Below, piece after piece: positions 2,734 to 3,413 of a stretch of DNA of 7,677 nt; the stretch's first letter is position 1, and each line of letters starts with the position of its first letter. The stretch is from positions 1-7,677 of the IMG/VR virus record IMGVR_UViG_2681813234_000009. One strand, written 5' to 3'. The notes under the pieces were generated by a model. That model searched no databases. It was not told where the DNA came from and saw only the letters and a list, made by a program, of their open reading frames with translations. The position numbers and the translations under genes are program-made. The stretch is from a virus (taxonomy: Duplodnaviria; Heunggongvirae; Uroviricota; Caudoviricetes).

Positions 2734-3194
2734 ACATCATCACCTGCTTGTTTGGTTGTTGCTGTTCCCCCTCTCCTCCGAAGGAGCTGGAGATGGTTTT
2801 GGTCGAATGTTTTTCTCTGGTATGTGATCCCAGACTGTTTTATGTGTCGAATTGCCACCACCTGCTTGTGCTCTTTGCTCTGTCATATGATTTCCTTGGA
2901 TCGTTGGGGATATCCAGATTATACAGATTTCTTGTCGTTGGGGAATGACAGGAACCACCTCGCCTGACGTGGTTAAAAGCAGGCACACAACACGAAAGCG
3001 CACGGCGAAGTCATTTCTCCCTCTGTTGCGTGTCGCCGGTATCTTCGACCGTGCGCTTCCGGTTGTGGCACTCCGCGAAATGGCGCGGCGGTAAGTATGG
3101 CGGGGTTATCCTTACCCCCACTGGTAGCACCGGGTTGTCAGGTTGACCATACGCCTGAGTGACAACCCCGCCACAACATCTCCATGTTGAGGCT

Positions 3195-3249
3195 TGTGTG
3201 AGACCTTTGGCGGCATCAGTTTAATTGCTGGCTGATGTCCGCCCTTTTT
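3195..3249 (+). ncRNA. dicF: DicF-like small RNA (3' end defined by intrinsic terminator); 5' end approximate
   Basis: Terminator stem GGCGGCATCAG(3209-3219) / CTGATG(T)CCGCC(3232-3243), 11 bp with one bulge, then CTTTTT (3244-3249). Positioned immediately upstream of dicB as in Qin. Sequence and architecture resemble my recollection of E. coli DicF, but the 5' part differs. Confidence 0.5.
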
Positions 3250-3253
3250 AAAG

Positions 3254-3413
3254 TGAATTTTGTGATGCGGTGAATGCGGCTAAGCGCACGCGGAACAGTT
3301 AAAAAGCGATTAGTTCCCCCGTATCGGGGGTTTATGGGTTTCCCTGTATCCGGCGTTAATTGTTAACTGGTTAACGTCACCTGGAGGCACCAGGCACCGC
3401 ATCACAAAATTCA
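3254..3413. repeat. 19 bp perfect inverted repeat pair flanking about 120 nt of the dicB leader
   Basis: tgaattttgtgatgcggtg (3254-3272) is the exact reverse complement of caccgcatcacaaaattca (3395-3413). Enclosed region holds the hairpin CCCCCgtatcGGGGG and GTTAAC-tg-GTTAAC. The right arm ends 17 nt before the dicB ATG. Confidence 0.7.

Follow-up and report, generated by a model that had tools for sequence, protein, structure and literature searches.

The stretch of DNA analysed here (the window: 7,677 nucleotides (nt) of the virus record IMGVR_UViG_2681813234_000009) comes from a lambdoid prophage of E. coli 1303 (NZ_CP009166), spans its immunity and early-left region, and is the counterpart of the dicBF operon of the K-12 prophage Qin. 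It carries a cro-like gene (423–650, − strand) and a LexA-type repressor gene (743–1393, + strand), the latter followed by a terminator and a pL-type promoter. Between this promoter and an AT-rich open reading frame (ORF) of 148 amino acids (aa) on the − strand (2287–2733) lie a DUF1391 (ydfA-like) ORF and an ORF of 128 aa. The small RNA (sRNA) DicF with its intrinsic terminator occupies 3195–3248 of the + strand (terminator stem 3209–3243, then a U run) and is followed, in this order, by an STnc100-like element, dicB, a ydfD homologue, an exonuclease gene, xis and int. Few bacterial sRNAs have been known for as long as DicF, and work on the dicBF operon has concerned cell-division control, phage exclusion and the virulence of enterohaemorrhagic E. 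coli. Our subject is the sequence 5′ of DicF, about which we are highly confident of two things taken together: that 3062–3177 of the + strand is a noncoding RNA domain of 116 nt, made of a closing helix, three hairpins and a pseudoknot, which with a linker and DicF makes up the ~190-nt long form of DicF; and that this domain is a self-contained module moving independently of DicF.

All elements of the fold lie on the + strand. The domain is closed by helix P1, in which GTTGTGGC (3062–3069) pairs with GCCACAAC (3170–3177). Inside it, hairpin P2 (3073–3088; CCGCG 3073–3077 with CGCGG 3084–3088, loop AAAUGG) leads into a nearly invariant junction, J2/3 (CGGUAAGUAUGG, 3089–3100), and this into a variable hairpin, P3 (3101–3119), which has 4–7 base pairs (bp; here GGGGT 3102–3106 with ACCCC 3114–3118) and a pyrimidine-rich loop. 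The long hairpin P4 (3132–3168) consists of 9 bp (3132–3140/3160–3168), a 4-nt bulge (3156–3159) and 3 further bp (3141–3143/3153–3155), and its loop contains CCAUAC (3147–3152), which pairs with the last six bases of J2/3 (GUAUGG, 3095–3100) to form the pseudoknot. Behind the domain, a linker hairpin CAACAU/AUGUUG (3174–3189) shares bases with the end of helix P1's 3′ arm, so that the linker hairpin and the end of helix P1 are mutually exclusive; a 4-bp version of this hairpin is found in all 56 sequences of an alignment of homologues, A1 (RNAalifold consensus).

An initial annotation, made from the letters of the window alone, had named five pairings in a GC-rich, hairpin-dense stretch, and all five are present where it placed them. 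They comprise the stems of P2 and P3, the domain-closing pairing 3062–3069/3170–3177 (helix P1), an 11-bp stem with a 4-nt bulge (GGGTTGTCAGG, 3132–3142, with CCTGAGTGACAACCC, 3154–3168), which is P4, and a small hairpin AACCAC/GUGGUU (2953–2974, + strand; arms 2953–2958 and 2969–2974) that lies outside the conserved domain. The difference in base composition that it described is also there, with a GC content of 0.55–0.59 across the interval versus 0.33–0.45 in the adjacent AT-rich insert. It was without two features found here, the pseudoknot and a further helix, P0, upstream of the domain. In terms of folding energy, the 311-nt stretch 2940–3250 is more stable than all of 100 dinucleotide shuffles (z = −3.4); for the 123-nt domain alone, whose minimum-energy fold gives P1–P4, z is −1.47 and 17 of 200 shuffles are equally stable. 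Because the support from folding energy is weak by itself, the case for a real structure rests on the comparison of homologues.

Homologues were gathered in three ways: with the DicB protein as an anchor, independently of the domain's own sequence, giving 56 distinct sequences (alignment A1); with a 19-nt word in viral contigs, giving 93 distinct domain sequences; and with BLAST in phages and plasmids. Mean pairwise identity in the DicB-anchored set is 66% in the P0 region (2995–3058), 97% in the 5′ part of the domain (3060–3100), 72% in P3 and junction J3/4 (3101–3127), 95% in the 3′ part of the domain (3128–3169) and 66% in DicF (3195–3247). Judged from these identities, the strongest constraint at the locus is on the stretch 5′ of DicF, not on DicF. 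The flanks of the domain are mosaic around a near-identical core, and in the cdtI, Ayreon and Stx2c phages the BLAST match to the window covers exactly 3062–3178, the closed domain. The 123-nt core gives 8615 matches in 4269 of 5426 complete E. coli genomes (~79%), with at most eight copies per genome, in a region that is without annotation in RefSeq.

Pairing is maintained across these homologues. In 92 distinct homologues, 97.5% of cells are paired, versus 34–54% when the partners are slid by 1–3 columns, and double changes occur at seven pairs, a number reached by two of 500 shuffles. Read on the − strand, pairing falls to 87.6%; the difference comes from 338 G–U cells, and the fold thus fits the + strand better. 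The variants of the 3′ arm of helix P1 (GCCACAAC, GCUGCAAC, GCUACAAC and others) all pair with the invariant GUUGUGGC via G–U, the Ayreon class has GUUGUGGU/ACCACAAC as its closing helix, and elements like phage P1 have an unrelated one, AGCUGU/AC(G)AGCU. Within P4, the pair U3138–A3162 becomes C–G in the P1-like copies and the pair 3141–3155 alternates between G–C and G–U. The pseudoknot pair 3096–3151 is C–G in phage P1, U–A in near-identical P7-like plasmids, and again C–G in one lambdoid copy (L018). P3 exists in 46 distinct versions, nearly all of them hairpins at the same place, that fall into at least seven stem classes, among them CGGGG/CCCCG, CGAGG/CCUCG, CUGGG/CCCAG, CUGGGGC/GCUCCAG and CAGGUGG/CCACCUG. 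Junction and loop bases, for their part, are nearly invariant between P1-like and lambdoid copies. Taken together, compensatory and G–U changes argue for P0, helix P1, P3, P4 and the pseudoknot, and for the + strand only.

Other pairings were considered and not adopted. A pseudoknot using the AUGG of the P2 loop is disfavoured by the corresponding loops of phage P1 (ACAGG) and L128 (AAACGG), and it is the J2/3 pairing that covaries instead. The additional pairs that RNAalifold proposed on a wider alignment, UUGUGG/CCGCGA and GGCGG with the terminator's CCGCC, are all invariant, and the second is impossible in phage P1. In the window (3106–3131) and in homologous copies, pyrimidines dominate the P3 loops (UCCUU, CUCC) and purines the junction behind them (GAGGA, AAGGA, GGAG), which resembles a pair of anti-Shine–Dalgarno and Shine–Dalgarno sequences; as a second pseudoknot, however, the P3 loop UCCUU and the GAGGA of J3/4 are no more complementary than with shuffled J3/4 (median p 0.47).

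The same changes bear on whether the conservation concerns RNA at all. Conservation of the DNA itself, whether it links mosaic phage modules for recombination or is maintained by gene conversion between co-resident prophages, would fit the mosaic flanks around a near-identical core, and the up to eight copies per genome favour homogenisation; a small protein would fit the hypothetical proteins that some phage records annotate across the region. The substitutions, however, keep pairing, many of them as G–U that would be A–C on the other strand, and the P1-like copies build the same fold from helices of other sequence. The segment of P3 and J3/4 is 25–30 nt long among homologues and all three residues modulo 3 occur, so indels break every frame; neither the 49-aa + strand ORF at 2945–3094 nor the opposite-strand ORF annotated in Ayreon has a Pfam match. 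Because the indels take every residue modulo 3 and the local ORFs have no Pfam family, the domain region cannot be coding, in agreement with the initial annotation, which had seen no convincing ORF there. Of the outcomes that would have told against that annotation, neither a lack of covariation nor a conserved ORF such as ydfC is seen in the interval: the stems covary, and ydfC, where present, sits upstream of P0. An explanation at the level of DNA or of a small protein is largely refuted by the strand-specific covariation and seems to us hardly credible.

Helix P0 (15 bp; arms 2996–3010/3043–3058, + strand, with A3048 bulged) encloses a variable apical part (3011–3042). It is retained in 25 distinct variants despite replacement of the apical 30–40 nt, with changes that include G–C to A–U, C–G to U–A and G–U, and of 200 domain copies examined, 166 have it on their 5′ side. 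It is found in most lambdoid copies; copies of the Ayreon and Salmonella types have other helices ending just 5′ of the domain, and P1-like copies have a promoter in its place.

The position of P0 can be compared with what is reported for K-12. According to a preprint (Ragunathan et al. 2023, bioRxiv 10.1101/2023.04.14.536235, confirming Faubladier et al. 1990), K-12 DicF has a 53-nt and a 190-nt form; the 53-nt form requires RNase E, and RNase III generates the 5′ end of the 190-nt form by cutting the operon transcript between its nt 813 and 814. A count of 190 nt upstream from the 3′ end of K-12 DicF (L002 1704) leads to L002 ~1514/1515, equivalent to ~3055/3056 of the window, which is the base of the P0 3′ arm, 6–7 nt before helix P1 and ~137 nt upstream of the DicF 5′ end. 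Since the count lands at the base of P0, long DicF consists of the domain, the linker and DicF. The window is 82% identical to K-12 across 3042–3250, K-12 also has the 5′ arm of P0, and the 190-nt long DicF of K-12 Qin is the same RNA as that of the window, on the same strand and contiguous with DicF. From its position, P0 is the probable RNase III substrate that gives the 190-nt long DicF its 5′ end. An 8-nt motif, G(U/A)GC(G/U)(C/A)U(U/C), stands 3–5 nt 5′ of the closing helix in all flank classes (window 3051–3058, L093 of phage Ayreon ~2488–2496, L091 of phage P1 ~2483–2490; forms GUGCGCUU, GUGCUCUC and GAGCGAUU), and the K-12 RNase III cut falls inside it.

The part of long DicF that forms the domain appears in print as a ‘long untranslated region’, or as an intermediate of processing (PMC5069750). 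In the DicF literature that we read there is no account of its fold, its pseudoknot, its conservation above that of DicF or its occurrence without DicF, although an earlier description is possible. The interval is P0 together with the 5′ body, without DicF, of a known precursor, and this body is in itself an apparently undescribed, widely distributed structured RNA module. Both readings that the initial annotation had offered are hence borne out in part: that of a processed precursor of DicF by the K-12 RNase III cut and the 190-nt length, which map by homology to the base of P0, and that of an independent structured RNA by conservation above DicF, by covariation and by terminators unrelated to that of DicF, as in phage P1.

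DicF is excised from a larger transcript whose end is an internal terminator, and in this it is like the operon-internal and 3′-untranslated-region (3′-UTR) sRNAs freed by RNase E, such as SroC, MicL and CpxQ (PMC9438474); in those, however, the upstream part is coding or unconserved UTR, whereas here nothing else at the locus is as well conserved or as structured. One could picture the domain as a spacer in DicF biogenesis, which would position the RNase III and RNase E cuts, shield the ydfABC mRNA or the precursor, and perhaps keep toxic DicF inactive until it is processed. It does lie just where this requires, with the mapped RNase III site on one side and the DicF 5′ end made by RNase E on the other; the upstream ydfA transcript is lost in an RNase III mutant and accumulates in an RNase E mutant (Ragunathan et al. 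2023), and stem-loops guide RNase E processing of 3′-derived sRNAs (work cited in PMC9438474). A spacer, however, would have no need of 95–97% identity in junctions and loops while DicF drifts to 66%, the pseudoknot and the four-way architecture exceed what a processing guide requires, and P1-like elements keep the domain without a recognisable DicF or P0. We consider this explanation improbable.

The clearest case of the domain without DicF is phage P1 (L091), in which Rfam finds no DicF. Its copy (~L091 2490–2612, 77% identity) starts ~25 nt downstream of the point at which Pban, the ban promoter under C1 control, initiates transcription. A ‘dicF-like region’ annotated in this phage (NC_005856 68791–68892 = L091 2553–2654) overlaps the 3′ half of the domain copy and the terminator; the annotation reflects sequence similarity only, and the shared part is the upstream domain, not the sRNA. 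The terminator of phage P1, GCCCAUCUUCGGGUGGGCG followed by U6, lies 44 nt after P4 and is unrelated to that of DicF. Such an arrangement is general, as a strong intrinsic terminator is found 44–92 nt after P4 in 44 of 45 distinct downstream flanks, and these terminators are of at least six sequence types. The exception, L038, has the domain without an adjacent terminator. At this locus (L038 1700–2100), an ORF (GGAGGAAAAATG...) directly 3′ of the domain replaces DicF and its terminator, with dicB still ~680 nt downstream.

The domain is always located in an early, repressor-controlled operon, where it heads an untranslated stretch of 0.6–1.5 kb that should be sensitive to Rho. In the window and in K-12 this is the pL/dicBp operon, in phage P1 the domain follows directly after Pban, and in Ayreon it follows an annotated promoter after cI. 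Our terminator scan of the window shows the DicF terminator as the only strong + strand terminator before dicB–xis–int. From Pban to ban, no + strand promoter is listed in the record of phage P1, so that the tRNAs, tciABC and ban must be reached by read-through of the terminator. Also, none of the pL-proximal ORFs belongs to an N-like Pfam family (DUF1391, DUF2303 or nothing).

We tentatively favour the reading that the domain is a cis-acting leader that would let RNA polymerase read through the terminator, put-like by function but not by descent. An RNA polymerase that has transcribed the domain and bound its folded form would pass the intrinsic terminator 45–90 nt downstream, whatever its sequence, and would continue over the long untranslated stretch into dicB...int or, in phage P1, into the tRNAs, tciABC and ban; termination would instead give the long DicF RNA, which RNase E would trim to DicF. 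Because the terminators are of at least six unrelated types, no conserved pairing between domain and terminator is possible, and any effect would have to go via a host factor. The transcribing RNA polymerase, possibly with Nus factors, would be the most economical such factor, and the invariant junction and loop bases suggest contact with a conserved host partner. We count in favour of read-through in cis the L038 domain without a terminator, the need for read-through in phage P1, the DicF terminator as the only strong + strand one before dicB–xis–int in the window, and the early operon with no N-type family in its pL-proximal ORFs.

The put RNAs of HK022-type phages (putL, putR and a putL-like RNA of HK639) provide the comparison for such a function. 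Their read-through of terminators depends on the RNA and on the zinc-binding domain of the RNA polymerase β′ subunit. Like the domain, they are structured RNAs encoded in cis within an early operon under repressor control, with a promoter upstream and terminators downstream, and the phages that carry them are likewise without a recognisable N protein. A resemblance in sequence is visible by eye only (CGAA(C/AU)GGCGCG, GUAA..AUG.CG.GGG, CGGGUU..CAGG.UGA). One parallel was dropped, as a terminator just 3′ of HK022 putL was not found under the criteria of our scan. The lambda nut and rrn boxA elements are like the domain in their position, the leader region of operons that are early or untranslated. 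In some classes the 8-nt motif 5′ of the domain bears a loose and weak likeness to boxA (e.g. GUGCUCUC), and no boxB-type hairpin consensus is apparent.

Several observations weigh against the read-through leader. K-12 Northern blots in Ragunathan et al. 2023 show no ydfABC–dicF–dicB read-through transcripts at basal expression, which argues against efficient antitermination at that level. The put RNAs consist of two stem-loops in ~70 nt, whereas the domain has four helices and a loop–junction pseudoknot in 116 nt, and, unlike put, it is present in one copy per phage, in the left operon only. Covariance models failed in both directions, ruling out membership in the put family: a model built from the domain (R1) had no match at HK022 putL, putR or five other put loci, and a model of seven put RNAs (R2), which scores 97.9 bits on putL and 60.5 bits on putR, gives no domain copy more than 6.9 bits (E = 3.4) and has no hit with E < 10 on the copy in the window. 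As for the structure, P2 shows no compensatory change among the homologues compared, so that its support is complementarity, and independent compensatory events are few. An exact 19-nt word, which covers the 3′ arm of P2 and the 5′ strand of the pseudoknot, served to collect the 92 sequences, so that the invariance of these bases in that set is in part by construction, and all members come from phages and plasmids of Enterobacteriaceae. Finally, the near-obligatory terminator and the definition of both ends, giving an RNA of ~175–190 nt, fit a discrete, sRNA-like product about as well.

This last point leads to the main rival explanation, in which the domain would be the working part of a discrete trans-acting RNA, either the ~190-nt long DicF or a ~137-nt fragment cut out by RNase III together with RNase E. 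Such an RNA would act by binding or titrating a conserved partner in the host, be it a protein or an RNA (for instance RNA polymerase, RNase E, Hfq, ProQ or the ribosome), with the terminator merely stabilising its 3′ end. Its ends would be defined everywhere, the 5′ end by RNase III in P0 (lambdoid copies) or by the Pban start (phage P1) and the 3′ end by the terminator (44 of 45 flanks); the closing helix joins the ends of the domain, a trait of many stable RNAs; there is near-invariance of the junction and loop bases; and the 190-nt species builds up in stationary phase and when RNase E is inactive (Ragunathan et al. 2023). We nevertheless regard a trans-acting RNA as rather unlikely: no conserved single-stranded seed was identified and no partner or target is known, nothing in the Rfam families of protein-binding RNAs matches, the L038 domain has no terminator, and a fragment without a terminator would need unusual stability. 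If action in trans were true, the 190-nt ‘precursor’ would be a bifunctional RNA.

A conserved multi-helix junction with a pseudoknot immediately 5′ of an intrinsic terminator, and a linker hairpin that competes with the last pairs of the closing helix, could also describe a ligand-sensing riboswitch aptamer with the DicF terminator as its expression platform. No Rfam 15 aptamer or riboswitch matches at E ≤ 1 within 2950–3194, however, and linkers and terminators are by inspection unrelated among the members, leaving no conserved antiterminator pairing. Nor do the differing downstream genes, dicB and kil-like genes in one case and tRNAs, tci and ban in the other, point to a metabolite that they would share. 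We rejected a transcriptional riboswitch as a candidate and rate this explanation as very improbable.

Comparison with known RNA families gave no name for the domain. An Rfam 15 scan of the whole window, a check that had been proposed with the initial annotation, returned at E ≤ 1 DicF, a sub-threshold STnc100 and two chance matches, none of them within 2950–3194; the DicF model (RF00039, 52 positions) matches 3195–3244 only, with 45.4 bits (E = 1.3e-7; gathering score 48). ARAGORN finds no tRNA or tmRNA gene in the window, and a tRNA-like or tmRNA fold was rejected. The anti-sRNAs AgvB and AsxR were likewise rejected, being located in late, stx-proximal regions, with Rfam models that have no match here.

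Returning to the read-through leader that we favour, it may be, with slightly less assurance than the reading itself, that the domain represents a new class of phage RNA that reprograms a host machine, for example a second, put-unrelated family of protein-independent processive antiterminator RNAs. If control of read-through holds, the domain would set the balance between DicF and toxic DicB with the other early-left genes, and would be a second kind of RNA-only antitermination. Whether it acts in cis or in trans, the module is common to lambdoid prophages and P1-like phage-plasmids and occurs in about four of five E. coli genomes, and the family is ready for entry in RNA databases.

Further features of the locus lie outside the domain. 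The STnc100-like element (3255–3412, + strand; RF02076, 35.8 bits, gathering score 47) stands between DicF and dicB, and its outer helix is a perfect 18-bp duplex (3255–3272 with 3395–3412). K-12 carries the same element (L002 1702–1911), and phage P1 has an STnc100-like match 5′ of tciA (L091 3842–3961). A 72-nt DicF species has been described (PMC5069750); as it would end at ~3266, inside this duplex, the duplex is probably the RNase III site that generates the published 3′ end. Upstream of P0, the small hairpin at 2953–2974 belongs to a 37-nt block (2950–2985) with a 97% match to L003 1501–1537, which adjoins ydfC (L003 1560–1778). This block lies directly 5′ of ydfC in other prophages, and the window is without ydfC, so the block marks a module junction. 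The 148-aa ORF (2287–2733), which has predicted hydrophobic stretches and no Pfam family, is an antisense insert in the pL operon with the ydfA-like genes on one side and the domain on the other, and is possibly a moron. In the immunity region of phage Ayreon (L093 40–228, − strand), a C4 antisense RNA (80.7 bits) and isrK (58.9 bits), both above their Rfam gathering scores, adjoin each other. In the pL region of the window after the repressor terminator (1441–1500), an inverted repeat, ACTATAAAACTAAAT/ATTTAGTTTTATAGT, overlaps TTGACT...TATAGT and looks operator-like within the early-left promoter.

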